11,701 nucleotides of DNA from a virus: the UHGV virus genome UHGV-0310186; one strand, given 5' to 3'. Positions within the stretch are counted from its first letter, which is position 1, and each line of letters begins with the position of its first letter. Of the stretch, positions 398-11,701 are shown in pieces. Made by a program: the position numbers and the translations under genes. The notes below the pieces were generated by a model, which worked only from the letters and a program-made list of their open reading frames with translations, made no database searches and had not been told where the DNA came from.

Positions 398-510
398 AAC
401 GAACGCCTGTCCTGATTGATGTGAACGGCGTTCCGCTTCGGGAGAGCCTCAGCTACAAATTCAATTCTTCGTCCATCTTTCTGGACAGACACCACCCGTT
501 TACCGGTTAA
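394..510 (+). pseudogene. B: Portal protein (lambda gpB-like) N-terminal fragment, cut after about 22 codons
   Basis: An ATG overlapping the W stop opens [21 protein letters not shown], similar in position and composition to the lambda gpB N-terminus (..GPDGMTSLREYAGY..). The frame then runs into the inverted W repeat and ends at 508-510. Confidence 0.4.
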
Positions 511-561
511 TAAATCAAGGCGCGCCTGACGCAGCGCCTGCAGTTCAGCGACTGTAACCAT
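462..561 (-). pseudogene. W: gpW 5' fragment on the minus strand (native ATG, first 33 codons), then runs into unrelated antisense sequence
   Basis: The ATG at 561-559 sits directly after the terminase A stop, in the lambda A-W position. It encodes [35 protein letters not shown]; homology is lost at about 462, the edge of the inverted repeat. Confidence 0.5.
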
Positions 562-2473
562 TCACTCCTCCGGACAGCTTCGCTGCCAGTTCTTTAAGGG
601 TTGGCCGGGTCGTCTCTTCTTCCCGGGATTTTGCCAGTACAGCCAGATCAAGCTGCCAGCGTTGCACGGACACACGTAATGCCGCGTAGGCATACACCAG
701 GCAGTCCAGCGCTTCGTTACGCCGCTTTTTGTTATCCCACAGCAGACGCATCTTTCCTTTTTCCCACTTCTCCACAAGCTCTTCCGCGACCAGTTGCTGC
801 GCCTCTGTCTGCGAAAAAATCTCCGGATCATCAGGAAAACGGATGGCATACGACGTGGCTTCATCCGCAGGCGTGGGCTCGGCTTTCATACGGGCATAGA
901 GAATTTCTTTTGCGGTGTCCGTCCCCACTTCACACAGATAAACGCCCCGCTGATTGCGGGTTTTCGGCATGGTGATCACCGGCTTGCCATAGACAGACGC
1001 GCCTTTTACCGGCAGCACACGGAAAACACCGTGTTTTTTTGACCTCTGGTAGACGATTTCACCATCGATCCCCCCGGTGTCCCAGCAGACACGGGAAATG
1101 GTCATTTCGGTGCCATCCGCATGGCGGTATTTTTTGTTGATCGCCGCATCCACACGTAACAGCGTCTCTTCCTCATCAGGACGCCCCATAATGATGATTT
1201 TATCCACCAGAAAAGCTTCCTCTCCCGGTGCCCATCCCCAGACATACATCTCAAAACGGTTTCGCTGCGAGTCAATGCCCGCCGTCAGATAAACCACCCG
1301 GGCAGGCACCGCCGCCGTGTAACGCACAACCTTATCCATCAGCACCTGGTGATCGAGTTTTTCGCCCACGGCCTCTTCCCAGGTCTCGCCCAGCGTGGTG
1401 TTCACAAAGGTTTTCAGGCCGTTGGAATCTTTCAGTGCATCCAGCCAGTCATAGACTATCTGTACCCAGGTGGTGAACGGACTGTACGCTGTCCAGATAT
1501 GGAACGTGATGGAGCGCGGCGGCGGAATTTCATTATCCGCGGCGCTGAAAAACGTCAGACCGTCACGGGTCCACATCCCCGTGTTTTCACAGATCCACCG
1601 CCCGTTGCTCTGGTCAAGCTCAGACTGATGGATCACGCAGCCATGATGTTCACAGAGGTAGAAAACGCTTTCGGGGCTGTCCTTCTCCCATTTAAGGCCA
1701 AAAGGCGTGGATTCATCGCCAAATTTCAGATACTGCTCCTCCCCACAGTGTGGGCAGGGCACATAAAAACGCATGAAATGCGCCGACTCGTTGGCCGCTT
1801 TTTCGATCTGGCAGGTGCCTTTGATTTTAGGCGTCGAGCCGCGAATGGATTTGGGCCATACAGAGCCCTCAATACGTTTATCCCCAAGCAGGGTTGGCGA
1901 ACCCTCTTTTTCGACATCCGGTTCGAACGAGGAAAGTTCGTCATAGCAGACCACGTCCACGGATTTTTCACGGTAGTTTTTGGCGGCAGCGCCGCCCAGG
2001 CACCAGAAACCCACACCCGATGAAAAGCGTTTCAGCGTGAGGGTATTGTCACGATGTTTACGCCCCAGCCATGGAAAAAGGTCTTTCAGACATGGCACAT
2101 CCCGAATCGTCGCCTCCACGTGAGACTTCATAAAATCTTCAGCGGCAGAATCCGTGGGCTGAAAAAGCAGACTGTTTCGGGATTTATGCTCAATAAAATA
2201 CCCGACCACCCCCAGCAACATCTTTGTATAGCCAACACGGGCAGATTTAATCAGATTAACAGTCCGGATCTGATCATTCCCCATGCTGTTCATGATGGCG
2301 ATCTGGAACGGCAGCGTTTTCCATTCTCCCTCACCATATGAAGATTCTTTAGGCAGATAATAATTTTGATCAGCCCATTCAACTGGCGTCACCGGCAATG
2401 CCCTTATCAGGGGCTGTAATGCTGTTGTGACAGCACTCATCATATTATTCAGTTGTTGCTCTGATATATTCAT
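545..2473 (-). CDS. A: Terminase large subunit (lambda gpA family)
   Basis: Long ORF that aligns end to end with lambda gpA as I recall it ([46 protein letters not shown]..., ...GIDSQ..., ...[13 protein letters not shown]...). Start placed at ATG 2473 (MNISEQ) rather than the upstream in-frame ATG at 2530. The start overlaps the 3' end of Nu1, as in lambda. Confidence 0.95.
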
Positions 2474-2954
2474 CGAGTAAATCCGGTAATTTATCCCCCG
2501 CCCGCGCACACTGATTTGCCCCCTTCGCAATAAGGGTTTTCAGATGGTCAAGATGGCGCGGTGTTAAATCAGGAAACTGTCGCTGCATGGATAAAGGGAT
2601 GGAATCAAGCGTACTGGATAACGCCATTGCCAGCTTGCTGAGGGCAAAAATACAGAACCCGGTATCAATAAGTTTTCCTTTTGACACCTCATTTTTTAAC
2701 TGCTGTGTAACAGCCTGTTCTGCTGTCAGTTCCCATCTGGCAATAAGCAATTTCTCCTCATAGTCGTCTTCGCTATCGCCATCAGGCACATCGTTTTTAC
2801 TTCTTCTCAGATACGATATGTAAAAATCGCGCCAGGCATCCAGATCCAGTTGCCCTCGCTTATTCGATATCGGGGCACCCGGCAATTTCTGCAATCTGCG
2901 AAGCTGGCGATCGGTCAGACTTAAATGCCTGGCAACTTCAGTCTGCGTAGCCAC
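2445..2954 (-). CDS. nu1: Terminase small subunit (lambda Nu1 family, divergent N-terminal DNA-binding domain)
   Basis: 169-aa ORF with a GTG start preceded by AGGTGAGGA. The C-terminal half resembles lambda Nu1 (TGFCIFALSKLAMALSSTLDSIPLSMQRQFPDLTPRHLDHLK...LLDEYI vs TAFCTFVLSRIAGEIASILDGLPLSVQRRFPELENRHVDFLK...LLSEYI). It lies immediately upstream of A, next to cos. Confidence 0.85.
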   Translation of the reverse strand: MATQTEVARHLSLTDRQLRRLQKLPGAPISNKRGQLDLDAWRDFYISYLRRSKNDVPDGDSEDDYEEKLLIARWELTAEQAVTQQLKNEVSKGKLIDTGFCIFALSKLAMALSSTLDSIPLSMQRQFPDLTPRHLDHLKTLIAKGANQCARAGDKLPDLLDEYIRATTE

Positions 2955-2996
2955 TCCTCACCTCGCAAAAACTCTCACTTCACAATCACAACAAAA

Positions 2997-3100
2997 CCGG
3001 TCATGTCCGGCTTACATGTCTATTTTTTGTGCATGTCCGGTTCACAGAAGACCTCTTTTTTTATTTTTCATATAGTTAACTTGAAGAGAAACCGGACATG
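2997..3100. promoter_or_regulatory. cosB-like terminase-binding region: three CATGTCCGG / CCGGACATG repeats plus an AT-rich spacer
   Basis: CATGTCCGG at 3002-3010 and 3032-3040, inverted CCGGACATG at 3092-3100, and an AT-rich tract at 3051-3090. Located between cosN and the Nu1 start, which is the cosB position in lambda (R3-I1-R2-R1 logic). Confidence 0.5.
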
Positions 3101-3170
3101 GTTCCCGGAAAATTTTCATAAATAGCGAAAACCCGCGAGGTCGCCGCCCCGTAACGGCCCGGATCGCCGG
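3101..3170 (-). other. cos: cos site core: cosN (cohesive-end sequence at 3138-3149) with flanking cosQ side
   Basis: The reverse complement of 3106-3150 reads GGGCGGCGACCTCGCGGGTTTTCGCTATTTATGAAAATTTTCCGG, which matches the first 45 nt of the lambda left end as I remember it. On the other side, ...CCGTTACGGGGCGGCGACCT matches the lambda right end. Confidence 0.8.
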
Positions 3171-3402
3171 AAAGGACCCGCAAAAATGATAATGGTTATC
3201 ATTTTCAATGTAGTCCGGTTTCTTCCACCATCGCACCGGACTGGCGACTATGAGGGGACAACGCCGCGCTCCGTTAACGCGGTAAACCCCGGTGTGTATC
3301 GTTTTTGATTATCCCCGCACACTCGCGCAGAGGAGTCTCCCTGTCGGGCTGCGGTCTCTGTTAATGAGGGAATACAGCGACGATACGGTGCATCAGCAAA
3401 AC

Positions 3403-3870
3403 TTAGTTCAGGCACTGAGTGCGGATATAGTCCTGTGCCCCTTCCAGCTGCTTCTGCATTGTCATCAACCGTTCTCTGAGGATGAAATAATCCCGTTCAG
3501 CGGTGTCTGCCAGTCGGGGGCCGGTTGCATTATCCACGCCGGAGGTGCCGGTGGCTTCACGCACGGTACCGGAGCAGGTGGCGTTGATCCGCAGGCGCTT
3601 ACGACCAGCGGCAACATCAGCACGCAGAGTTTCATTTTCAGCTCTCGCATCGGCTAATTCCCTCGAGTATCTGGCATCAAGTTCAGCGACATCACGCTGG
3701 CGTATCTGCATATCAGTAATTGTCGCGTTCGCCAGTTTCAGCTCACTGACTTTTTTATCGCGCTGCGCTTTGTAGGTGATGGCGTTATCGCGGTAATGAT
3801 TCAGCCCCAGACTAAGCACACCACAGGCTACCAGCAGGACAATAATCACCACACACAGAACACGGTTCAT
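3403..3870 (-). CDS. Rz: Rz i-spanin (inner-membrane spanin subunit)
   Basis: [75 protein letters not shown]... is close to lambda Rz (..[53 protein letters not shown]..). Start set at ATG 3870, not the upstream ATG at 3954. Confidence 0.9.
3465..3650 (-). CDS. Rz1: Rz1 o-spanin lipoprotein, embedded in Rz in another frame
   Basis: [61 protein letters not shown] resembles lambda Rz1 (MLKLKMMLCVMMLPLVVVGC...[32 protein letters not shown]). Lipobox LVVSAC, proline-rich. Confidence 0.85.
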
Positions 3871-3871
3871 A

Positions 3872-3958
3872 TCACCACCAACGGATTGCCCAGACCAGAA
3901 CAGCAATGGCCACAATACGAATGGCAAATGCCATTGCCCGAATAAGTTCAGCACTCAT
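3872..3958 (-). CDS. 28-aa hydrophobic peptide ORF, translationally coupled to Rz
   Basis: ATG at 3958; encodes [28 protein letters not shown]. Its TGA stop (3872-3874) lies 1 nt before the Rz ATG. Too short to appear in the supplied ORF track; coding status uncertain. Confidence 0.3.
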
Positions 3959-3969
3959 CTTTTTAAAGT

Positions 3970-4220
3970 TCACGATTTCAGCGCAATGACCAGTTTTGCC
4001 AGCCCATACAGCATCGGAGACACAGCAATACCAACAGCCACCCACTTAATAGCAAAAGCCAGCGCTCTGCTGATGTCATCAGTCACTGTCACCCCAGCAG
4101 CCCCGACGAAGACAACATCACCCAGGCGAGGGACAGAAAAAGAGCAACCAGCATTAGTGAAAATGAAATACCGACAATCACACACAGGACCTTTGCCGGC
4201 GTTATGAGTTTGTCTGACAT
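3970..4220 (-). pseudogene. Small membrane-protein gene, apparently frameshifted near 4095 in a G-rich run
   Basis: ATG at 4220 with an AAGGGG Shine-Dalgarno 5 nt upstream opens MSDKLITPAKVLCVIVGISFSLMLVALFLSLAWVMLSSSGLLG and stops at 4092-4094. Another frame continues directly with ..VTVTDDISRALAFAIKWVAVGIAVSPMLYGLAKLVIALKS to 3970. The motif RALAFAIKWVAVGIAV recurs as [14 protein letters not shown] in the 28-aa ORF downstream. Confidence 0.3.
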
Positions 4221-4390
4221 AGCTACCCCTTAATTGCCACAATTAACTGGGATACTACCCATAAAAAAGGGATGCTCCAGACCAGCAAAAATTTCCAGTT
4301 TGGTAATTGACTAATCATGAGTCGCAACTCCCTAATCAGTTTGCTAAAATCAATCAAGGCAGCCTCCCATAGCTTACTGCCATAAAAACA

Positions 4391-4423
4391 AAACCCCGCT
4401 TGCTGCCAACAAACGGGGTTTTT
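4391..4423. terminator. Bidirectional rho-independent terminator-like hairpin
   Basis: AAAACCCCG-(15-nt loop)-CGGGGTTTTT: GC stem CCCCG/CGGGG with an A-tract on one side and a T-tract on the other, so it could terminate either strand. About 90 nt downstream of the endolysin stop. Confidence 0.55.
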
Positions 4424-4512
4424 ACTTTTATTCACTTACATTTTGCCAGTTCGCAGGATTTCGTGTTATCCGTCCGCCTTGGCCAACGTCATTTATTAGC
4501 AAAATATTCTGC

Positions 4513-4875
4513 TTATCTGTCGATTCCCCAGCACGCCAGCGCGCTCTCCTGGTCACGACGGGATACCTGACCGTAACAGTTATTTGAGCGAATACGGCAG
4601 TCCCTGCCACCGTCCTTAATCCACCAGCGAATCGCCTCACACGCTCCCCTGCGGTCACCAGCATTCAGCCGCTTATAAAACGTCGACGGGAAACACTTAC
4701 CGGGGCCAATGTTATAGGGACAGAATGACGCTATACCCGCTTTCTGTGGTTCGGTCAGTGGAACTTTAATATTGCGCTCCACCCATGCCAGCGCCTTATC
4801 CCGTTCAATGGCATTAACCTGGTCGCATTTTTCCTTCGACAGTTTCATGCCCGGAATAACAGGTTTACCATCCAC
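4513..4875 (-). pseudogene. R: Endolysin (phage lysozyme, SAR-endolysin R21/933W-R type) 3' portion, detached from its 5' portion
   Basis: VDGKPVIPGMKLSKEKCDQVNAIERDKALAWVERNIKVPLTEPQKAGIASFCPYNIGPGKCFPSTFYKRLNAGDRRGACEAIRWWIKDGGRDCRIRSNNCYGQVSRRDQESALACWGIDR aligns with the C-terminal two-thirds of P21-type lysozymes. It lacks the SAR domain and catalytic Glu, and begins at a GTG created by the junction. Confidence 0.85.
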
Positions 4876-4915
4876 CTAATCCTCTACTGAAATTGTCAGA
4901 TATATTTCAGCCATC
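4832..4915 (-). repeat. Left composite inverted-duplication block: copy of element a (4832-4875) and element b (4877-4915)
   Basis: 4832-4875 is the exact reverse complement of 5173-5216 (44 bp); 4877-4915 is the exact reverse complement of 5218-5256 (39 bp). Element b contains the 7-bp palindromic arms CTGAAAT/ATTTCAG and a GAGGA Shine-Dalgarno. Confidence 0.9.
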
Positions 4916-5001
4916 AGGAAAAACGCCAGTGTCCTACCGCTGGCGGGCTGAAGATTTAACATATCCAGGGATTCGGAACCGATAAATCCTGATAAATATC
5001 C

Positions 5002-5226
5002 ATGAACACCAAAATCAAATATGGCCTGTCGGCTGCCGTTCTGGCGTTGATTGCCATCGGTGCGCCTGCGCCTGATATTCTCGACCAGTTTCTGGATGAA
5101 AAAGAAGGTAACCACACAACGGCATACCGTGATGGTGCGGGTATCTGGACCATCTGCCGCGGTGCCACAATGGTGGATGGTAAACCTGTTATTCCGGGCA
5201 TGAAACTGTCGAAGGAAGATGGCTGA
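5002..5226 (+). pseudogene. R: Endolysin 5' portion (SAR signal-anchor and catalytic E-8aa-D-5aa-T motif) ending at a premature stop
   Basis: MNTKIKYGLSAAVLALIAIGAPAPDILDQFLDEKEGNHTTAYRDGAGIWTICRGATMVDGKPVIPGMKLSKEDG*: a Gly/Ala-rich SAR domain followed by the lysozyme catalytic motif. It shares the 15 codons VDGKPVIPGMKLSKE with the minus-strand 3' portion, then runs into element b and stops. Confidence 0.85.
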
Positions 5227-5256
5227 AATATATCTGACAATTTCAGTAGAGGATTA
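5173..5256 (+). repeat. Right composite inverted-duplication block: element a (5173-5216) and element b (5218-5256)
   Basis: Same two elements as 4832-4915, each inverted. Order is a then b on this side, b then a when the left block is read on the minus strand. Confidence 0.9.
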
Positions 5257-5259
5257 ACC

Positions 5260-5574
5260 ATGCATAACGATCAACATAATTATGATTTATGCCTGCAAGC
5301 CATAAATGAGCGGGTAAAATCAGAGTGCCTCTTACTCCTCCCACAAGAACACGATGCAGTAAAATCCATTCAGGCTGAGCCGTATGGACATCTCACACCT
5401 GTGACTCTCGGCATTATCGCCAGAGCATTAACACAGCCCATGCTTATGCGTATTAAGACCAATATAAATAACTGGTTGAATGAAGAATTAAGCTACCTTG
5501 ATTGTGAGTGGGACAATCATTACGCAAAAACACAAAAAGAACGCATCTTCAGTCGATTATCCAGCAACAGATAA
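5260..5574 (+). CDS. Hypothetical protein (104 aa), plus strand, convergent with the 268-aa ORF
   Basis: ATG at 5260 preceded by AGAGGA inside element b; 104 codons, lower GC than the flanking phage genes. No family recognised by eye. Confidence 0.45.
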   Translation: MHNDQHNYDLCLQAINERVKSECLLLLPQEHDAVKSIQAEPYGHLTPVTLGIIARALTQPMLMRIKTNINNWLNEELSYLDCEWDNHYAKTQKERIFSRLSSNR

Positions 5575-5583
5575 CGAGCCACC

Positions 5584-6390
5584 TTATATACGCCCTTTCA
5601 GATAAGTCATCCCCGGCTGCATCCAGTCAACAGGTGCTTTCTTAAAGGGCGTATTATCAAAATCACGCAGAAGAGCCTCCAGCACAACTGCATCATTGTC
5701 AGCACCACTGGCCATCATTTCAATCTCAGCTGCTACCTGCAGATATCCCATGCAACGACCAATGCGCTTCATCAGCCCCTGCTTTTTATTGTTCTTCAGG
5801 TAATCAATGGCAAATTCAATGAGCGCCTCACTATGCTGGTGCGATGGCGGTGTTAATTTCCCATTTTCTGAGATGGTTATTTTCCCGCCATCTCCGTATA
5901 CAACAAAGGATGGCCGGTTACACTCCCATTCCTGATCTTTATCAGGTGCAGACGCAATAAAATAACGTTTATTTCCTTCCTCTCCGGCACTTTTAACCGT
6001 AATGGAGTACTCAGACTGCAGACAAGACGCCTCTTTTTCTGACCGCAGTGTTGACGGCGGCATCTTCAGAGAACAAGTAATTCTTCCCGGTAGCTTTCCT
6101 TTGTAGGTTATCAACACATCCTGCGCCTCTAAAATTACGGGGCGCTTTTCCGGCAACGGTTCGTTCCATTCACATAACCCGGCAGCAACATCCATGAAAA
6201 ACTGCTTCGCCTGCTTTTTCGCCTCAGCTTCGTAAAACTCCAGCGTGGCACCTTCAGTACGGTCAAGACTAATCGCCACATCTGGCAACAACAGCGACGC
6301 TTGCCCGTCACCTTCCGGCTTCACAGTAACAGTAACCTTATCCCCGTAATTATTTATCCCCTTAACAACCAGTTCATATTTTTTATTCAT
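5584..6390 (-). CDS. Hypothetical protein (268 aa) between holin and endolysin, translationally coupled to the holin
   Basis: ATG at 6390 lies 4 nt after the holin stop, with a GGGGAGAG Shine-Dalgarno inside the holin 3' end. Long uninterrupted ORF; no family recognised by eye. Confidence 0.65.
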   Translation of the reverse strand: MNKKYELVVKGINNYGDKVTVTVKPEGDGQASLLLPDVAISLDRTEGATLEFYEAEAKKQAKQFFMDVAAGLCEWNEPLPEKRPVILEAQDVLITYKGKLPGRITCSLKMPPSTLRSEKEASCLQSEYSITVKSAGEEGNKRYFIASAPDKDQEWECNRPSFVVYGDGGKITISENGKLTPPSHQHSEALIEFAIDYLKNNKKQGLMKRIGRCMGYLQVAAEIEMMASGADNDAVVLEALLRDFDNTPFKKAPVDWMQPGMTYLKGRI

Positions 6391-6394
6391 CACT

Positions 6395-6610
6395 TTACTC
6401 TCCCCGCGCCGCCTTACGCCGGTCCTCTTTGATTTTGAAATACAGGTTAGTCAGGTACGTCAGCAGCCCAAACAGCAGACTCCCCAGCACGCCTATTGCC
6501 GCCCACTGAGACGGGGAAACCCTGTCCAGCAACTGCAGGAACCAGTAGCCCGTTCCCACCGCTGACGTGGTGTATGACACACCTGTTGTGATTTTTTCCA
6601 TCTGGTACAT
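6395..6610 (-). CDS. S: Pinholin (phage 21 S21 family) with dual-start motif
   Basis: [71 protein letters not shown] is near-identical in pattern to P21 S21 (..[51 protein letters not shown]). Two in-frame starts (MYQM..., MEK...) fit a holin/antiholin pair. GGGAGA Shine-Dalgarno. Confidence 0.9.
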
Positions 6611-6686
6611 ACCCCGTCTCCCGTTATCCGGAAGCTCACAACAATATAAAGACCACCGGCACACACCGATGGTCCCTTGCGCAGGC

Positions 6687-6932
6687 TTACATCATCATGT
6701 CGCTGTCAGGTGTGGGTTCACCGCCATCTGAAGCACTCCCGTCACCCGCGATACCTTCCGGCTCCGGAACCGCTGGTACGCCCAGCAGCTCATCCAGAAT
6801 GGCATCCACTTCTGCATCAAGACGCGACTCAAGGTTCTGGCGGAGTTTCTGTTTCAGTGCGCTCAGGACTTCTTCAGAGCGCAGGACTTCCTTCACTGCC
6901 TCAGCAGTGACCAGGGATGTGATTTCTGACAT
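6687..6932 (-). CDS. Hypothetical acidic protein (81 aa)
   Basis: Internal ATG at 6932 of the 139-aa track ORF gives [81 protein letters not shown]. Sits between NanS-p and the holin. Confidence 0.4.
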
Positions 6933-6969
6933 GGGATTTTCTCGTTGAAAGGTGTTGTCAAGAAAGTGA

Positions 6970-7152
6970 CTACGGAATGAGCGGATCTTCGGGTTTGCTT
7001 CCGGCTGACTGACTGGCGCTGATTCTCTCAGCGGCCCTTTTATCAATCTGCCTGCGCCAGAAATCGCGCACTGCCCTGTACCCACCCGAAAGAAGATACA
7101 TAACACAGACTGCCATACAGAAGTACAGCATTACCTGATGAATAAATGTCAT
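6970..7152 (-). CDS. Hypothetical small membrane protein (60 aa)
   Basis: ATG at 7152; hydrophobic N-terminal segment (VMLYFCMAVCVMYLLSGGY) then a basic tail. Weak ribosome-binding site. Confidence 0.3.
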   Translation of the reverse strand: MTFIHQVMLYFCMAVCVMYLLSGGYRAVRDFWRRQIDKRAAERISASQSAGSKPEDPLIP

Positions 7153-7250
7153 AATTTCTTACCGTTATGGTTGACAATGAGAACTGTTTTCATTTAGAAA
7201 TGATTGATGTCGAAAGCATCTTTTCTTTACATTCTCCATTGGGATTACCT

Positions 7251-7287
7251 CCGCCAGCTTCCATTCCTGCCGCTGGCGGCTTTTTTT
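7251..7287 (+). terminator. Hairpin plus T7 tract oriented for the plus strand, directly 3' of the NanS-p stop
   Basis: CCGCCAGC-(13-nt loop)-GCTGGCGG followed by CTTTTTTTAT. On the minus strand the A-tract precedes the stem, so for the NanS-p transcript it would be a 3' stabilising hairpin rather than a canonical terminator. Confidence 0.4.
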
Positions 7288-7288
7288 A

Positions 7289-9250
7289 TCATGCCGCGAT
7301 GTCCGCGTTGTTCACTTCCACCTTCACACTGTCAATCAGCAGCGTATATGTCGCCGCCTTTGATATGCCTGTCAGTTGCAGTTTGTCCGCCGCCCCTGAT
7401 GCCGGAGATTTCACCAGTGTGAACGGCGTCCCCCGTTTCTCATCCAGTACCGGCGTCACCTGAATGCTGTTGTTTCCGGCAAACTCAAAAGCCAGTGTGT
7501 GCCATCCGTTATCAAAGACCCCGAACGTTTCCAGCTTCGCATTCGGCTTCTTGTGGTGCATCGCGTTCAGGTTCGTCGCATCCGTCTGCAGAAAGAAGGA
7601 CATCAGCATGTCGTTGCCTTCCTCTGCCAGCGTCACTCCCTCCGGCAGGGACGACAACTGCCAGTAAATGCCCAGGGCAAACTGATTCGGCACCAGTGAA
7701 CCCGGCAACTTAAACCGTACGCTCACACGTCCCCCCTTCTTCAGTAACTCCACTCCCTGTCCGGCTGCATCATGCTCCAGAAACCAGATGTGGTTTTCCG
7801 GTTTATTCAGTTGCAGGGCCTTACCTCCCGTAGCCCCCGCATCACTGACCACCGCTTCAGCAATGTTTTTGTTAACATTGTCTCCGCTCGCCGGTTTGTG
7901 ATAATAGCGCCAGCCCTGTGATGCCAGGTCTTCGCCGGACGCCAGCAGACTCATCAGGGTTCGGTTACTGACCGGGGCTTCCGGCTCTCTCTCCGTACCT
8001 TCACCGGAAGGTCCGGTGGGCTTCACCGTATCAGGCTGTTTTCCGGTAATGAATTCAGCGTTTCTCCCGGCATGCACAAGAATCGCCGTTGCCAGACGGT
8101 CGGAAATAATCCCACGACGTGCCCATGATCCAAAATGCGTTTTACGGTCGGCCGTCGTCCAGGTTTTGGCGTCCGTTCGACCACCGGCTCCGTAATACCC
8201 AATATCCGCAACATCCGGATCTTCTGACGGCTCGTTGGTACCCACATTTCGCCCGTTTTCATCCGTCATAAACGGCACAAAGAAGATTTTTTTTGCGGAT
8301 TTCGTCTTGTATGCACCATACACCGCATCGTATTGCGAAGAATAAGTCTGCTTCCAGTAGTAGGTCGTGTCGCCACAAATCCAGGGAACCGATGACGGAG
8401 AGCCCCCGAGACACTGACCTCCGAATTCCGACAGGTCAGAACGATATTTTTCCACCATGGAATCAAACAGCCCCGGCTGAGTGGCGTATGCACCCTGTTT
8501 CAAATCAAACTCGCCCTGCATCCAGACCACTGCAAGCAGAATATTTTTAGGGTTGGCCTTCAGTGCGGCCTGAGTACGGGTAAGCAGGTCCTTGTACAGT
8601 GGCTTATCAACACCCCAGCGTGCCGAGGTCTCGCTTGCGCCGGTGGATTCGCTGAAGGTACCTTCATCGCCCGCCAAAAATGCAGAACCACCACGGCAGC
8701 ACGGAACCAGAAGAATACCGGCATTCGCCGGAATAAACGGCAACAATTTCTTCGCGATATGTAATCCCTGCCCCACGCATCCATACTGAGCTGCGCTGGC
8801 TTTCGGGTGTGAAAACTTACTCAAATCCTGAACATCATGCAGGCAGTGGTCCGCAGGAATAATGTCATTGTAGTTACAGGACGCACCACCCGGCGTGACA
8901 GTGCTGCGACGCGCCAGCTGTTTAATACGCGGGTCCGGACGGTCATATGTCTCCGGCAGCGGAAGCCCTTCACCATACGCCATACCGTTTGACTGCCCGG
9001 CCAGGGCAACAACAAAGTAATACTCCGGGTTGCTGGTGGTGCTGATAACTGCGCCTTCTCCATCCGACGGCTTCACCACCACAGGTGTGGTGACATCACC
9101 TTCCGCCGCAATGGCCTGCATCAGGGTATAAGGCGTGATGGCCACCGGACTGCCAAATGGCTGCCACCCCTCCTTCAGTTTTTGTGTCAGTCGTTTCGCA
9201 AGGTCTGACGGCGATGCCGCCCTGACAACATCATAGTGTTTAAATGCCAT
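7289..9250 (-). CDS. nanS-p: Prophage sialate O-acetylesterase NanS-p-like protein (DUF1737-type N-terminus, SGNH/SASA esterase core, C-terminal carbohydrate-binding region)
   Basis: A roughly 650-aa ORF sitting between the tRNA/toxin locus and the holin, which is where Stx-type prophages carry nanS-p (933W L0105/Z1466-like). Start set at ATG 9250 (MAFKHY, GGTGGAAAG Shine-Dalgarno) rather than 9265. Assignment is by recalled architecture and size, not a run alignment. Confidence 0.75.
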   Translation of the reverse strand: MAFKHYDVVRAASPSDLAKRLTQKLKEGWQPFGSPVAITPYTLMQAIAAEGDVTTPVVVKPSDGEGAVISTTSNPEYYFVVALAGQSNGMAYGEGLPLPETYDRPDPRIKQLARRSTVTPGGASCNYNDIIPADHCLHDVQDLSKFSHPKASAAQYGCVGQGLHIAKKLLPFIPANAGILLVPCCRGGSAFLAGDEGTFSESTGASETSARWGVDKPLYKDLLTRTQAALKANPKNILLAVVWMQGEFDLKQGAYATQPGLFDSMVEKYRSDLSEFGGQCLGGSPSSVPWICGDTTYYWKQTYSSQYDAVYGAYKTKSAKKIFFVPFMTDENGRNVGTNEPSEDPDVADIGYYGAGGRTDAKTWTTADRKTHFGSWARRGIISDRLATAILVHAGRNAEFITGKQPDTVKPTGPSGEGTEREPEAPVSNRTLMSLLASGEDLASQGWRYYHKPASGDNVNKNIAEAVVSDAGATGGKALQLNKPENHIWFLEHDAAGQGVELLKKGGRVSVRFKLPGSLVPNQFALGIYWQLSSLPEGVTLAEEGNDMLMSFFLQTDATNLNAMHHKKPNAKLETFGVFDNGWHTLAFEFAGNNSIQVTPVLDEKRGTPFTLVKSPASGAADKLQLTGISKAATYTLLIDSVKVEVNNADIAA

Positions 9251-9510
9251 GGTTCTTTCCACCATCTGAAAAATAATTCTTTAAAATACCTGACATGTAA
9301 TACAGAAAAAACACAAAACCATACCTTAAATAAAAACCTCATCATCAAGCAGATATGCATGGATAAACTACAAGACGAGATATAAACCACCCTGCATTTA
9401 AATAAACAATAAACAACATCAGAAAAATAATTCTGCTCTATGGTTTACATTCAAAAATATCATTTATACTTTTCAGAACATCACCAGCAAGACATAAACA
9501 AGGAAACTAA

Positions 9511-9846
9511 ATGAAGTGGATTGTGATTGATACAGTTATCCAGCCATCATGCGGAATATCTTTTTCAGTCATATGGAGTAAAATAAAATTAATAATCTGG
9601 TATCAATCGGATGCTTTCTTACCTCCTGAAAGTATATTTACACTGACTCACACAGGTATCATGCTCAATAACAAAGTGCTACCTGTAACCATTTACAACG
9701 TAGCACCATTCAATAAAACATTCTGGAATTTAATCAAAAACAGCCAGGAATGTCCTACAAATACAGATAACGTATTGAATGAATGCTTTAATAACCGTTG
9801 CACTCTGCAAATATGTCCTTATGGACTAAAACAACAAAGTCCATAA
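9511..9846 (+). CDS. Hypothetical protein (111 aa) in an AT-rich moron, opposite strand to the late operon
   Basis: ATG preceded by AAGGAAACTAA; about 245 bp of very AT-rich upstream sequence (9266-9510); low GC, Cys/Asn-rich product. No family recognised by eye. Confidence 0.5.
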
Positions 9847-9880
9847 GGAGTTTACTCACATCTGACAAAATCAATATAAA

Positions 9881-9902
9881 CAGCCCCTCCGGAGAGGGGC
9901 TG
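9881..9902 (-). terminator. GC-rich hairpin; terminator-like for the minus strand
   Basis: CAGCCCCTC-CGGA-GAGGGGCTG is a perfect 9-bp stem. On the minus strand it is followed by TTTATATTGATTTTG; on the plus strand no U-tract follows. Confidence 0.4.
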
Positions 9903-10293
9903 GAGAGTGGCGCTATGTGCCATTGCATGGTGCCGGGTGCCTCCCGGTGAATTCAGTACCAGCACCTGAATCCGCGATTATCCCATATACCTACTCGCTG
10001 ATTGCCCCTCCGCACAGGGGGATTCACCATGCCAGTTTCTTTTAACAAACTCCCCGCAAACCAGACAACAGTCAACCGCCTGAATTGTGAAGTATTTAAA
10101 AATTTCTCCCGCTAACTGATACCCGGCTAACAGTCTGGCGTTTTCTTTTTCAGCAACGGGAAAGCAACAACCACCACACCCGCCACCAGCACACCGTCAG
10201 CCAGCACTGACATTATCCGGCTGCTGCAATGCCACTCACAAAAACAGTAAGCAATCACTTTTTACCGTAACAAGTGATAATCCAGATATGTAT

Positions 10294-10620
10294 CTACCCC
10301 AGATGAGTAATCCGAAGTTCATCCATACCACAGGTCCTGGCTATTCTGTTGTACTCCTGAACAAGAGCAAATAATTCTGAATTAGCAACCATGAACTCAT
10401 CGCAAACCCTCTGAATAGCATCACTATTCAGAATAATAACGTCTCTTCCCGAAAGACGATCAGGAGTACAGAACAAAACTGTCAAACGGCTGAAGGCCTT
10501 TGCTCGTGCTGCATTGACTATATCAATACGCTGCCTAAGGATGAAACACCCCGACGCCTCATCAATATTCACTCTACCCACACCATATGAATGATAAATA
10601 TTTAATGCTGAAAAAACCAT
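10294..10620 (-). CDS. Hypothetical protein (about 108 aa) in the low-GC region downstream of the tRNAs
   Basis: ORF in the position occupied by stxA in Stx phages but unrelated in sequence. Start uncertain (ATG 10620 or TTG 10647). A possible sigma70-like promoter (TTGTCA-17-AAGTAT) lies upstream on the minus strand. Confidence 0.3.
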   Translation of the reverse strand: MVFSALNIYHSYGVGRVNIDEASGCFILRQRIDIVNAARAKAFSRLTVLFCTPDRLSGRDVIILNSDAIQRVCDEFMVANSELFALVQEYNRIARTCGMDELRITHLG

Positions 10621-10760
10621 TAGACCGTATAACAAACACTCAATCAATACTTAACAGAACTTTTATTTTTGACAAACATATAATATTTTCAACAATATCC
10701 TGAGCCAGGTATATTTCAGTATAAGGCTCTGCCGGAAGGAATCTGGAAGAATGAATATAG

Positions 10761-10834
10761 CGCGCTGTACTGGATTCGAACCAGTGACCGATTGCTTAGA
10801 AGGCAATTGCTCTGTCCGGCTGAGCTAACAACGC
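10761..10834 (-). tRNA. tRNA-Arg (anticodon TCT), phage-borne, no encoded CCA
   Basis: Hand-folded cloverleaf: acceptor GCGTTGT/ACAGCGC, D-stem GCTC/GAGC, anticodon stem ATTGC/GCAAT with loop CTTCTAA, T-stem ACTGG/CCAGT with loop TTCGAAT. Confidence 0.85.
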
Positions 10835-10934
10835 TGAATACCGATAATGGACCGCCATCGGGGACCCGCCCCCGCACCAACAACCCTGTTATCGCGTCGT
10901 CTGCTCTTCCTGATAAGCTAATGGCGGTTTGTGA

Positions 10935-11010
10935 TGGTGGCCCTTGCTGGATTTGAACCAGCGACCTGGCGATTATGAGTCGCTCGCTCTCACCACTGAG
11001 CTAAAGGGCC
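10935..11010 (-). tRNA. tRNA with CAT anticodon, most similar to tRNA-Ile2 (ileX/ileZ type) rather than elongator Met; CCA encoded
   Basis: GGCCCTTTAGCTCAGTGGTGAGAGCGAGCGACTCATAATCGCCAGGTCGCTGGTTCAAATCCAGCAAGGGCCACCA folds as a cloverleaf (acceptor GGCCCTT/AAGGGCC, anticodon loop CTCATAA, T-loop TTCAAAT) and is close to E. coli ileX as recalled. Confidence 0.85.
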
Positions 11011-11046
11011 GGGAGCAGAATAATAACGGTCCGTAATTAATTCCGC

Positions 11047-11071
11047 AATAAAAAACCCGCTCGGCGGCGGG
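11047..11071 (-). terminator. tR'-like rho-independent terminator downstream of pR'
   Basis: On the minus strand: CCCGC-CGCCGA-GCGGG followed by TTTTTTATT. Lies about 45-65 nt downstream of the predicted pR' start and upstream of the tRNAs. Confidence 0.7.
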
Positions 11072-11108
11072 TTGTAGAAACTCTTCTAACGTCAGGCATA
11101 AAAGGCCC

Positions 11109-11148
11109 ATCGTTATGACGAATTTACCACAGATTCCGGAAAAATCAA
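11109..11148 (-). promoter_or_regulatory. pR' late promoter with qut-like pause element
   Basis: On the minus strand: TTGATT (-35), 16-nt spacer, TAAATT (-10), then cgtcat and AACGATGGG. This mirrors lambda pR' (TAAATT ... AACGATGGG), where the -10-like AACGAT in the early transcribed region drives the sigma-dependent pause used by Q. Confidence 0.6.
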
Positions 11149-11153
11149 CCTTG

Positions 11154-11522
11154 TTACCTAGTTACCTTTTTTAACTGCCGCTCAGCCCATGCTTCTTCAA
11201 TATCAAACCGGGTCACCAGCGCATCATAGAATTTCTTAACTGTTTTTTCCCATGACGCGCGTGTTATCTGGTTTGTCACCTCGCATATAGCATTAAATGC
11301 CTCCGTTGATGGTAGTCTTTCATAGCCACGACCACCACAACGCTGGCAGTCTCTGATAACAGGCATACCACGTTTTACCGACTCTTCACGGTGAATGGCG
11401 ACACCACGCCCACGGCAATCCTTACAGGCGGTGGAAACCTCACCCTTTCCGCCACACTCCGGACAGGCAACTTTTACCACCTCCCTGACTTTTTTCCATT
11501 CTTCCCAGTAAGACGGATACAC
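11154..11522 (-). CDS. Q: Antiterminator Q (lambda Q family), zinc-finger C-terminal domain; N-terminus short or disrupted
   Basis: ...ACPECGGKGEVSTACKDCRGRGVAIHREESVKRGMPVIRDCQRCGGRGYERLPSTEAFNAI...WEKTVKKFYDALV...KKVTR parallels the lambda Q C-terminus (ARCRDCHGTGRAV...ECGRCKGVGYSRMPASAAYRAV...WSRTVKPLYDALV...LNAVTR). The only in-frame start is GTG at 11522, with an in-frame stop at 11619-11621, so the product is about 90 aa shorter than lambda Q. Confidence 0.6.
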   Translation of the reverse strand: MYPSYWEEWKKVREVVKVACPECGGKGEVSTACKDCRGRGVAIHREESVKRGMPVIRDCQRCGGRGYERLPSTEAFNAICEVTNQITRASWEKTVKKFYDALVTRFDIEEAWAERQLKKVTR

Positions 11523-11701
11523 ACCTTTCGTACACTTTGCCCATACCGGCGGCTTACCATCCGGATACTGGACCTTGTTTGTGGCATCAGTATGAATGAC
11601 AGGGTGCGGGCAACAGAATTACTGGCAGATTATGCACTCAGTCGGTGCGATCGTGTGGCGGCGTTGAGAAAACTTCCGGCAGAAATAAAACCGGTAGTGA
11701 T

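Follow-up and report, generated by a model that had tools for sequence, protein, structure and literature searches.

Genome comparisons show that the interval between the holin and endolysin genes is the regular slot of H-19B-, BP-4795- and Qin-type lambdoid lysis cassettes, not a novel insertion tied to the endolysin inversion. We put at about 0.6 the probability that this slot holds a holin-coupled late gene of the YdfR family (ORF268) together with a module formed by the C-terminal domain (CTD) of its product and a small convergent gene, ORF104, with the roles proposed below. The window, by which we mean the whole 11,701-nt stretch analysed (virus genome UHGV-0310186), had earlier been interpreted from its letters and open reading frames; that sequence-only reading was right about the layout and about the pairing of the two genes, but not in stating that neither product resembles a recognizable family, nor in suggesting that the pair might share an origin with an inversion of the endolysin. 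Its coordinates, the coupling of ORF268 to the holin (a 4-nt gap, with the Shine–Dalgarno sequence inside the holin gene), the convergence of ORF268 and ORF104 and the 9-bp gap between them are all borne out by the sequence (Table 1). The automated list of open reading frames adds one codon upstream of ORF268, a GTG at 6393; in the alignment, however, the homologues all begin MNKKYEL or MKKKYEL, which favours the ATG at 6390. The spacer between the two stop codons is too short to contain a terminator, so each transcript must extend antisense into the opposing gene.

Table 1. Features of the holin–endolysin interval and of the rearranged endolysin (window coordinates)
Feature	Position	Strand	Basis or remark
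Class II (P21-type) holin S	6610..6395	minus	Pfam PF04971 (Phage_holin_2_1), E 7e-33
Holin TAA stop	6397..6395	minus	read from sequence
ORF268 Shine–Dalgarno GGGGAGAG	6405..6398	minus	within last holin codons
Gap from holin stop to ORF268 ATG, 4 nt	6394..6391	minus	read from sequence
ORF268, 268 codons + stop	6390..5584	minus	ATG 6390..6388; translationally coupled to holin
ORF268 N-terminal DUF1327 domain, aa 1 to ~76	6163..6390	minus	PF07041; AF2 pLDDT 65–84
ORF268 linker and variable middle, aa ~77–159	5914..6162	minus	predicted disordered
ORF268 conserved CTD, aa ~160–268	5587..5913	minus	alignment; dN/dS
Spacer between convergent stop codons, 9 bp	5575..5583		ORF268 stop codon at 5584–5586
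ORF104, 104 codons	5260..5574	plus	convergent to ORF268
ORF104 Shine–Dalgarno AGAGGA	5248–5253	plus	directly after HP2, within 39-nt repeat 5218–5256
Hairpin HP2 (GCUGAAAU...AUUUCAGU)	5222–5247	plus	within 39-nt repeat 5218–5256
Hairpin HP1 (CGCCAG...CUGGCG)	4924..4945	minus	flipped away from ORF104 by inversion
Endolysin N-terminal fragment, 74-codon chimeric ORF	5002..5226	plus (wrong strand)	PF00959, E 5e-6
Endolysin C-terminal fragment, 120 codons	4875..4513	minus	PF00959, E 3e-16
Inverted segment, 341 bp, relative to E. coli SCU-484	4877..5217		splits endolysin
Inverted duplication, 46 nt	4831–4876 / 5172–5217		flanks 341-bp inversion
Inverted duplication, 39 nt	4877–4915 / 5218–5256		flanks 341-bp inversion

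ORF268 is a long, mosaic form of the YdfR family, in which a DUF1327 N-domain is followed by a variable linker and the conserved CTD. Residues 1–100 match Pfam DUF1327/YdfR (PF07041) with 139.1 bits against a cut-off of 25 (E 5.8e-41), which contradicts the earlier statement that neither protein resembles a recognizable family. Identity to K-12 YdfR is 47% over 78 aligned columns, and identity to the best protein cluster, which one source calls ‘YdfR family protein’, is 95%. The usual size of the family, a single domain of ~100–115 aa, is not matched, as ORF268 has 268 aa and the additional CTD. The AF2 model is poor overall (pLDDT 54): it gives the N-domain three strands and a long helix, while residues 71–154 have pLDDT below 50, and relatives in the alignment carry coiled-coil inserts of differing lengths in this middle region. 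The profile and structure searches that had been suggested for the two proteins thus yielded DUF1327 for ORF268 but no fold match, as Foldseek found nothing in the PDB below E 0.39 for the ORF268 model; profile searches with both alignments against PDB sequences returned coiled-coil noise only. The CTD is covered by no model in Pfam or NCBIfam. It is recognizable by two motifs, GRxMxxLQxAAExE and DNPPFK..W..PG..YLK, and its dN/dS of 0.2–0.4 indicates purifying selection.

Members of the YdfR family are the usual occupants of the holin–endolysin slot in E. coli K-12 Qin, H-19B, BP-4795 and many Stx phages. In Qin the order is essQ–ydfR–rrrQ, and ydfR begins 4 nt past the holin stop, as ORF268 does. 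DUF1327 genes appear in 100 phage records, and 3,158 of the 5,426 complete E. coli genomes (58%) contain DNA that matches the N-domain. The separation of S and R, which had been singled out as an oddity, is therefore usual in this phage clade. Stx2-converting phage 86 (NC_008464) has this arrangement as well: its gp04–gp07 match the four genes here in order and orientation, and its endolysin is intact. There gp05 corresponds to ORF268 and gp06 to ORF104, with 100% identity in the gp05 CTD and in gp06 as a whole. E. coli SCU-484 (100% identity to the window) also has the four genes with the endolysin intact, and prophages of E. coli O104:H4 and 55989 carry the arrangement too. The phage 86 pair bears no annotation beyond ‘YdfR family protein’ and ‘hypothetical protein’, and the identical ORF268 of SCU-484 is labelled by PGAP as a YdfR pseudogene, ‘incomplete, missing C-terminus’, with its CTD unannotated. 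Two further genes were seen in these surroundings: a bor-like gene, annotated on the opposite strand past Rz in phage 86, and a Panacea-domain gene within the same lysis region of strain A34.

The inversion that splits the endolysin belongs to a set of about five small rearrangements found only in the window. Some four further small inverted or transposed pieces lie near the window ends, and 10.8 kb is otherwise 100% identical to SCU-484. The inverted form occurs in none of the 5,426 complete E. coli genomes, searches of genome, viral and metagenome collections did not return its junction, and an exact look-up of the chimeric 74-aa endolysin ORF in the collection was empty. The inversion looks like an artefact, since this pattern of rearrangement is typical of chimeric assembly or amplification. 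It had been proposed that the two genes were recently inserted and that this cargo and the endolysin inversion stem from one recombination event. The adjacency of the two is the one point in favour of such an event, the inverted segment stopping 42 nt before the ORF104 start; the identical cargo, however, stands beside an intact endolysin both in phage 86 and in SCU-484, where the flanks are 100% identical, and this refutes a link between the two. The failure to find the inverted form elsewhere and the pattern shared with the other small rearrangements of the window also speak against the proposal, which is most improbable. The 39-nt repeat with its internal palindrome was also considered as a recombinase or invertase site. 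This was rejected because the repeat consists of hairpin HP2 and the ORF104 Shine–Dalgarno sequence and is single-copy in the reference arrangement, and also because the duplication and the other rearranged pieces have one signature in common.

ORF104 encodes a small, acidic, soluble, all-helical protein, for which the AF2 model is confident (pLDDT 87.8, pTM 0.81, five helices). The chance that the region is no gene, but merely non-coding spacer or antisense RNA, is scarcely better than that of a common origin with the inversion. In favour of that view, the protein has no match in Pfam, PADLOC or NCBIfam and the gene no consensus promoter, and one antisense frame shows a dN/dS (0.31–0.56) comparable to that of the ORF104 frame (0.24–0.5, indicating purifying selection). 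That low antisense value is an artefact of a kind to be expected, and the frame is closed: neither it nor the rest of the minus strand across ORF104 contains an ORF of at least 50 aa. The remaining frames give 0.6–2.8 for well-diverged pairs. Against the non-coding view, moreover, the length of ORF104 is exactly 104 codons across variants with dS of about 0.4–0.6, a frame of 104–107 codons is kept from E. coli to relatives only 27% identical to ORF104, the Shine–Dalgarno sequence is correctly spaced, and the predicted fold is a confident one. A separate idea, that ORF104 is N-terminally truncated, arose from a PHROG match covering positions 57–158 of a 159-position profile. It was rejected because the full-length clusters of the family are 101–107 aa, and because the 146-aa member is a partial call at a contig end, read through upstream sequence.

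The leader of ORF104 appears to be structured. HP1, which the inversion has moved, normally lies on the plus strand ~50 nt upstream of the ORF104 ATG; it is conserved, with covariation CG/UG/UA, and its wobble pairs are possible on the ORF104 strand only. Three clades share the two-hairpin fold (z-scores −1.9 to −3.7). Such a conserved leader suggests that ORF104 may have a dedicated transcript, although the promoter and terminator scan detected neither a sigma-70 consensus promoter upstream of ORF104 nor a terminator after it, and an Rfam search of 4800–6700 gave no match. HP1 was also examined as an intrinsic terminator; the U-run that follows it is not kept in the Salmonella or the metagenomic clade, so it is more likely a leader stem-loop.

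The distribution of the two genes bears directly on whether they belong together. Among the 5,426 E. coli genomes, ORF104 DNA occurs at 132 places in 95 genomes and CTD DNA at 970 places in 787 genomes. A joint CTD and ORF104 query was covered to at least 80% in exactly 95 genomes, and the number of places remained 970, which means that every E. coli ORF104 adjoins a CTD gene. The reverse does not hold: 692 of the 787 genomes have the CTD gene without ORF104, the function of which must therefore be dispensable, and in phage Stx2_95 the CTD protein is likewise present without ORF104, with R directly next. In Salmonella, ORF104 homologues (45% identity) occupy the Q–S interval, upstream of the holin, and lie 5–19 bp from convergent genes of 192 and 277 aa whose C-termini are 42–43% identical to the CTD, and in two of these loci (L011 and L012) no other called gene separates the pair from the holin. 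The pairing also holds in three metagenomic CTD lineages, one of them with a stand-alone CTD of 125 aa. Overall, the convergent pair is found in Salmonella and metagenomic prophages at 27–45% identity. All 10 pairs examined are convergent, with stop codons ranging from 19 bp apart to a 33-bp overlap.

Pairwise identities of the CTD and of ORF104 correlate (r = 0.90); since neighbours co-diverge through linkage alone, this carries less weight than the fact that the pair has relocated repeatedly. Taken as a whole, the comparative data show that the CTD and ORF104 behave as a two-gene module that is conserved and co-diverges across E. coli, Salmonella and more distant enterobacterial prophages, with the S–R and the Q–S interval as its alternative locations. 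The earlier suggestion that the two genes belong together is thus strengthened by the adjacency of every E. coli ORF104 to a CTD gene and by the recurrence of the pair in Salmonella and in metagenomic contigs. The survey of related prophages that had been proposed finds the pair beyond E. coli, but also finds that the CTD gene mostly occurs without ORF104 and that the position between S and R is not fixed.

A conserved two-gene unit that changes position within a moron-rich late region could be a toxin–antitoxin-like, abortive-infection or anti-phage defence module, with the CTD protein as effector and ORF104 as antagonist or sensor. The HicAB, methyltransferase and toxin genes beside the Salmonella copies would suit such a module, as would the orientation of ORF104, which is that of a lysogen-expressed moron, and the Panacea-domain gene of strain A34. 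We nevertheless think it unlikely. Neither protein matched any PADLOC-DB v2 family at E up to 1, or a toxin–antitoxin or defence family in Pfam or NCBIfam (NCBIfam gave no match of any kind), and PHROGs offered ‘unknown function’ families only. The genes are convergent in every pair examined, with no co-directional operon, and comparison of relatives revealed no conserved catalytic-type residues in the CTD. The CTD gene, which would be the toxin, so often occurs without the supposed antitoxin (the 692 E. coli genomes and Stx2_95) that it must be independent of it, which argues against an obligate pair. Finally, ORF268 is coupled to the holin and so is built for late expression in the phage's own lytic cycle.

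That coupling, and the position in the lysis cassette, are conserved in Qin and in many Stx phages, and might instead mark ORF268, with or without ORF104, as an accessory lysis gene that adjusts the triggering of the holin or the release of the endolysin, and hence lysis timing. A genetic screen cited in a recent report (PMC13232886) tied ydfR to cell-envelope integrity, which would agree with this. Neither ORF268 nor ORF104, however, has a membrane segment, a SAR domain or a lipoprotein signal; the maximum 19-residue Kyte–Doolittle hydropathy is 1.16 for ORF104 and 0.87 for ORF268, and both proteins are acidic (pI 5.7 and 6.2 for the two) and soluble. Lambda, P21 and 933W are not known to need a gene of this kind for lysis, and the position is not a fixed one, the Salmonella pairs lying upstream of the holin. 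K-12 YdfR, moreover, binds RNase E and RNA, not the envelope (PMC13232886). On all these grounds a role in lysis timing also appears unlikely.

The same report, from 2026, is the only functional lead on the YdfR family: residues 1–72 of K-12 YdfR bind the N-terminal half of RNase E and co-purify RNA (PMC13232886). Binding was reported for K-12 YdfR only, and YdfR overproduction altered few transcripts (PMC13232886). Our search of the literature on DUF1327, ydfR and the protein accessions found this RNase E interactome paper and incidental mentions only, and no experiments on long YdfR-family proteins, ORF104 or the phage 86 pair. For the holin-coupled late gene and its module we accordingly propose roles by analogy and from gene arrangement. 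The ORF268 protein would be cytoplasmic and soluble, and would be translated, like the lysis gene products, from the late transcript that depends on Q. By analogy with K-12 YdfR, its N-domain is likely to bind the RNase E catalytic half, RNA or both, and its CTD is probably a protein-interaction domain with ORF104 as partner. ORF104 would be read against the late transcript, from a leader whose two conserved hairpins may partly sequester the ribosome-binding site, and, to judge by its orientation, it is most likely made when late transcription is off, i.e. in the lysogen. It probably modulates or antagonizes the CTD protein without being indispensable, perhaps at the protein level. As the stop codons are only 9 bp apart, it could also act through unavoidable convergent (antisense) transcription.

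A bolder version of this scheme, which we regard as possible but doubtful, is that the CTD protein and ORF104 constitute a two-component system, so far undescribed, in lambdoid prophages of enterobacteria, in which a late effector, often fused to an RNase E/RNA-binding DUF1327 domain, is kept in check by a convergent partner made in the lysogen from a structured, possibly condition-sensing leader. If true, the system could serve as a lysogeny/lysis checkpoint or provide a novel function in superinfection or defence. Genes of the YdfR family abound in E. coli, and many Shiga-toxin phages have them, among these prophages of the O104:H4 outbreak lineage. The long forms offer three experimental handles: a second conserved domain, which current annotation misses or calls a pseudogene, a small partner gene dedicated to that domain, and the relocation of the pair as a unit within the late region. 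The practical gains are modest: the annotation is corrected, and a new domain family and a gene pair are defined. The current understanding of phage lysis is not overturned.

Compared with known systems, ORF268 resembles K-12 YdfR of Qin in its homologous N-domain, in its place between a class II holin and a lysozyme, and in its start 4 nt after the holin stop. K-12 YdfR, however, has 103 aa and consists of the N-domain and a helix only, whereas ORF268 adds the linker and a 110-aa CTD, and Qin, unlike the present locus, lacks ORF104. Stx2 phage 86 agrees in gene order and orientation, its intact endolysin setting it apart from the window. Phage proteins that target RNase E include T4 Srd, T7 gp0.7 and phiKZ Dip; ORF268 would join them as an RNase E ligand if its DUF1327 domain binds as YdfR does, although no likeness of sequence or fold connects it with them and its expression would be late, not early. 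As a small gene opposing the late transcript amid late and lysis genes, ORF104 is of the lambda bor type. Bor is a lipoprotein that stands alone, and we know of no dedicated partner gene for it, whereas the ORF104 product is cytoplasmic, no consensus promoter was detected for its gene, and it is tied to a convergent partner without an intervening terminator. With type II toxin–antitoxin systems, such as HicAB near the Salmonella copies, the pair shares two small cytoplasmic proteins co-inherited in a prophage accessory region, but it is convergent and not an operon, has no family match, and its larger partner usually occurs alone. The pair is already present in sequenced Shiga-toxin phages; what is new is the CTD as a domain, the convergence of every E. 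coli ORF104 copy on a CTD gene, and the recurrence of this pairing in Salmonella and metagenomic prophages.

In the window, the late genes lie on the minus strand, with ORF104, the 104-codon ORF, as the exception on the plus strand (table). The sequence-only reading described the interval between holin (S) and endolysin (R) correctly to the base: 4 nt separate the holin TAA from the ATG of ORF268, the 268-codon ORF, whose ribosome-binding site, GGGGAGAG, is located within the holin gene, and 9 bp lie between the stop codons of the convergent ORF268 and ORF104.

Features of the window, late genes in gene order, followed by rearranged pieces and other observations
Feature	Coordinates	Strand	Remark
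Q antiterminator	11522..11154	-	first late gene listed
tRNA	10938-11010	-	Rfam match; after Q
tRNA	10761-10834	-	Rfam match; after Q
SASA/NanS-type esterase	9265..7289	-	after tRNAs
DUF1378 and DUF826 small genes		-	between esterase and holin
P21-type class II holin	6610..6395	-	
ORF268	6390..5584	-	
ORF104	5260..5574	+	
Endolysin, broken			next after ORF104
Rz/Rz1, then terminase		-	beyond endolysin
Inverted piece	4877-5217		341 bp, inverted relative to reference
Four small inverted or out-of-order pieces	1-102; 102-195; 196-458; 11583-11701		relative to SCU-484
sRNA STnc100	9872-10061	-	Rfam, 132 bits; downstream of Q
111-aa ORF	9511-9846	+	between tRNAs and esterase
Several very small hydrophobic ORFs	3970-4435	-	between endolysin and Rz

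Judged by their conservation, both ORFs are real genes. Across E. coli variants at dS of about 0.4–0.6, ORF104 never departs from a length of 104 codons; dN/dS in its frame is 0.24–0.5, and homologues of 105–107 aa are kept down to 27% identity. One antisense frame is comparable (0.31–0.56) and holds no ORF of at least 50 aa; the remaining frames give 0.6–2.8 in well-diverged pairs. The AF2 model of ORF104 is confident and has five helices (pLDDT 87.8, pTM 0.81). Relatives of ORF268 form large clusters of 268-aa proteins at 80–95% identity, and its C-terminal 115 codons show a dN/dS of 0.2–0.4.

Neither protein had been thought to resemble a recognised family. For ORF268 this is not so: residues 1–100 match Pfam DUF1327 with 139 bits, and this region is 47% identical to K-12 YdfR. 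Neither protein has a match in PADLOC, PDB sequences, PDB folds or BFVD. A total of 100 phage records encode DUF1327, among them H-19B, BP-4795, YYZ-2008, mEp460 and many Stx1a/Stx2c phages, and DNA matching the domain is present in 3,158 of 5,426 complete E. coli genomes. The gene order in the Qin prophage of E. coli K-12 is essQ (holin), ydfR, rrrQ (lysozyme). On these sequence comparisons, ORF268 belongs to a recognised family whose normal place is between S and R. In a Salmonella prophage (L013), an 83-aa gene (4579–4830, minus strand) immediately upstream of the holin looks by eye like a stand-alone DUF1327-like domain (strand-strand-strand-helix pattern, 'EGD...V.V...YEQAA'), a hint that domains of this kind may be placed beside holins in several ways.

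Alignment of relatives shows ORF268 to be a four-part mosaic: the DUF1327 domain is joined by a conserved linker to a middle part that varies (the 296-, 305- and 329-aa forms have coiled-coil inserts there), and a conserved C-terminal domain (CTD; about aa 160–268) follows. The CTD is also found behind other N-termini and alone as a 125-aa protein; no Pfam or NCBIfam model covers it, and with 110 clusters at 50% identity in a set of 1.84 billion proteins the whole family is small. The invariant residues of the alignment (G, R, L, Q, E, P, K, W and Y) fall into three short motifs, and there is no conserved catalytic-type constellation, a pattern that would fit a binding domain. In RefSeq the long YdfR form is frequently labelled a truncated-YdfR pseudogene, and the CTD-coding part is without any feature in the RefSeq/PGAP annotation of most genomes, so that the family is largely invisible there. 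Intact long ORFs appear there as pseudogenes tagged 'incomplete, missing C-terminus' (comparison loci L001 4571–4906 and L016 2555–2890).

In lambda, P21 and 933W, S and R are adjacent, and to that extent the earlier expectation of adjacency was sound; on comparison of related sequences it does not hold for this phage clade, where the content of the slot varies. Stx2_EH2201 has a 114-aa gene, Stx2_95 a 329-aa YdfR-CTD protein with R directly after, Stx2_12E129 a 213-aa CTD protein without DUF1327 plus ORF104, PhiR5_1 a DUF1327 protein of 211 aa and, convergent to it, a small ORF that is unrelated, and phage 86, like the window, ORF268 plus ORF104. Accessory genes appear to gather in the lysis region more generally. 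In E. coli A34 (L010), a Panacea-domain gene (antitoxin-type domain; 788–1174, minus strand) lies just downstream of the lysozyme.

Over 459–4876 and 5218–11582 the window and E. coli SCU-484 agree at 100% identity, with zero substitutions in the 10.8 kb outside the rearranged pieces. SCU-484 has holin, ORF268 and ORF104 together with a lysozyme of 177 aa that is intact, and Stx2-converting phage 86 is arranged in the same way. Because the same cargo stands beside an intact lysozyme in both, it is independent of the endolysin inversion, which says nothing about its origin; the proposal that insertion and inversion stem from one event is refuted. Inverted duplications of 46 and 39 nt mark the ends of the inversion, and the small pieces break up gpW/terL (left end) and Q (right end). 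The inverted form was found in 0 of 5,426 complete E. coli genomes, its junction in none of three public collections (genome, viral, metagenome), and a look-up of its chimeric ORF returned no record. From these comparisons we take the rearrangements to be an artefact of chimeric assembly or amplification or, at the most, a very recent event private to this sequence. SCU-484 annotation gives the tRNAs as Arg and Ile, the 28–51-aa products at 3970–4435 as hypothetical proteins, and the 111-aa ORF, opposite in strand to the late genes, as anti-adapter protein IraM; in Stx phages stx is carried at this tRNA–esterase position.

Among E. coli genomes, a CTD DNA query matched 970 places (787 genomes), an ORF104 query 132 places (95 genomes), and a joint query 970 places, with at least 80% cover in 95 genomes; hence every ORF104 in E. 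coli adjoins a CTD gene, and the majority of CTD genes are without ORF104. Salmonella homologues of ORF104 (45% identity) lie in the Q–S interval, convergent to and 5–19 bp from 192-aa or 277-aa genes with C-termini 42–43% identical to the CTD. Three metagenomic lineages, including a stand-alone CTD and the most distant CTD found, are also paired (6-bp gap to 33-bp overlap). Pairwise identities of CTD and ORF104 are correlated (r = 0.90). That the two genes have stayed together through relocation, and while diverging to below 30% identity, is good sequence evidence for a functional link. Accessory neighbours of the Salmonella pairs (L011 6453–7597; L013/L014 7052–9373) include HicA/HicB pairs, an N6/N4 methyltransferase, and a 270-aa protein with faint pertussis-S1/Scabin-like matches whose partner, of 106 aa, looks secreted. 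Two other, divergent CTD lineages (L019 963–1532, plus strand; L024 4966–5388) have genes other than ORF104 downstream: in one, a protein of 189 aa read in the same direction, with about three hydrophobic segments, precedes the holin; in the other come a 79-aa ORF and a DUF1883 ORF of 96 aa, the latter convergent. Such genes may serve as alternative partners.

A promoter scan detected no consensus promoter upstream of ORF104. Its leader (L001 3698–3790; window 5218–5274 plus 4916–4953, the inversion having displaced the first hairpin, HP1) forms two hairpins in E. coli, in Salmonella and in one metagenomic clade. HP1, about 50 nt upstream of the ATG in all clades, has a CAGUG-loop-CACUG core, covariation at one stem pair (C-G/U-G/U-A) and U-G wobbles at several other positions, pairings possible only in ORF104-strand RNA. 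HP2, just 5' of the Shine-Dalgarno, differs in sequence by clade and is a hairpin in each. In minimum-energy folds (z-scores −1.9 to −3.7) an outer helix, UCCU with AGGA, partly pairs the Shine-Dalgarno, and in these models is reminiscent of an RNA thermometer or a translational switch. These features suggest that ORF104 has an mRNA of its own, structured and possibly translationally controlled.

The sole experimental lead on function that we found is a study of K-12 YdfR, which is reported to bind the catalytic half of RNase E (two-hybrid and co-purification), residues 1–72 being enough; RNA co-purifies with it, and its overproduction alters few transcripts (PMC13232886). ORF268 and ORF104 are both acidic and soluble, with no membrane segment in either. 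Beyond the identity of the parts and their linkage, which are shown, we infer that ORF268 would act late and in the cytoplasm, its N-domain engaging RNase E or RNA, and that ORF104, made while late transcription is silent, would dock on the CTD and modulate or antagonise the CTD protein, unavoidable convergent transcription perhaps adding an RNA-level layer. That the pair serves lysis timing is made less likely by the lack of membrane features and the position of the Salmonella pairs upstream of the holin; a toxin–antitoxin or defence module is likewise weakened, since the larger gene is mostly found without the smaller, the two genes converge, and ORF268 is tied to the late operon of the phage itself.

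The finding is real and less exotic than first proposed. What is new is the definition of the CTD, the CTD–ORF104 module and the ORF104 leader. GenBank already has the arrangement itself, under the names 'YdfR family protein' and 'hypothetical protein', in Stx2 phage 86 and the O104:H4 and 55989 prophages. In K-12 Qin ydfR starts 4 nt past the holin stop, the same spacing as ORF268.
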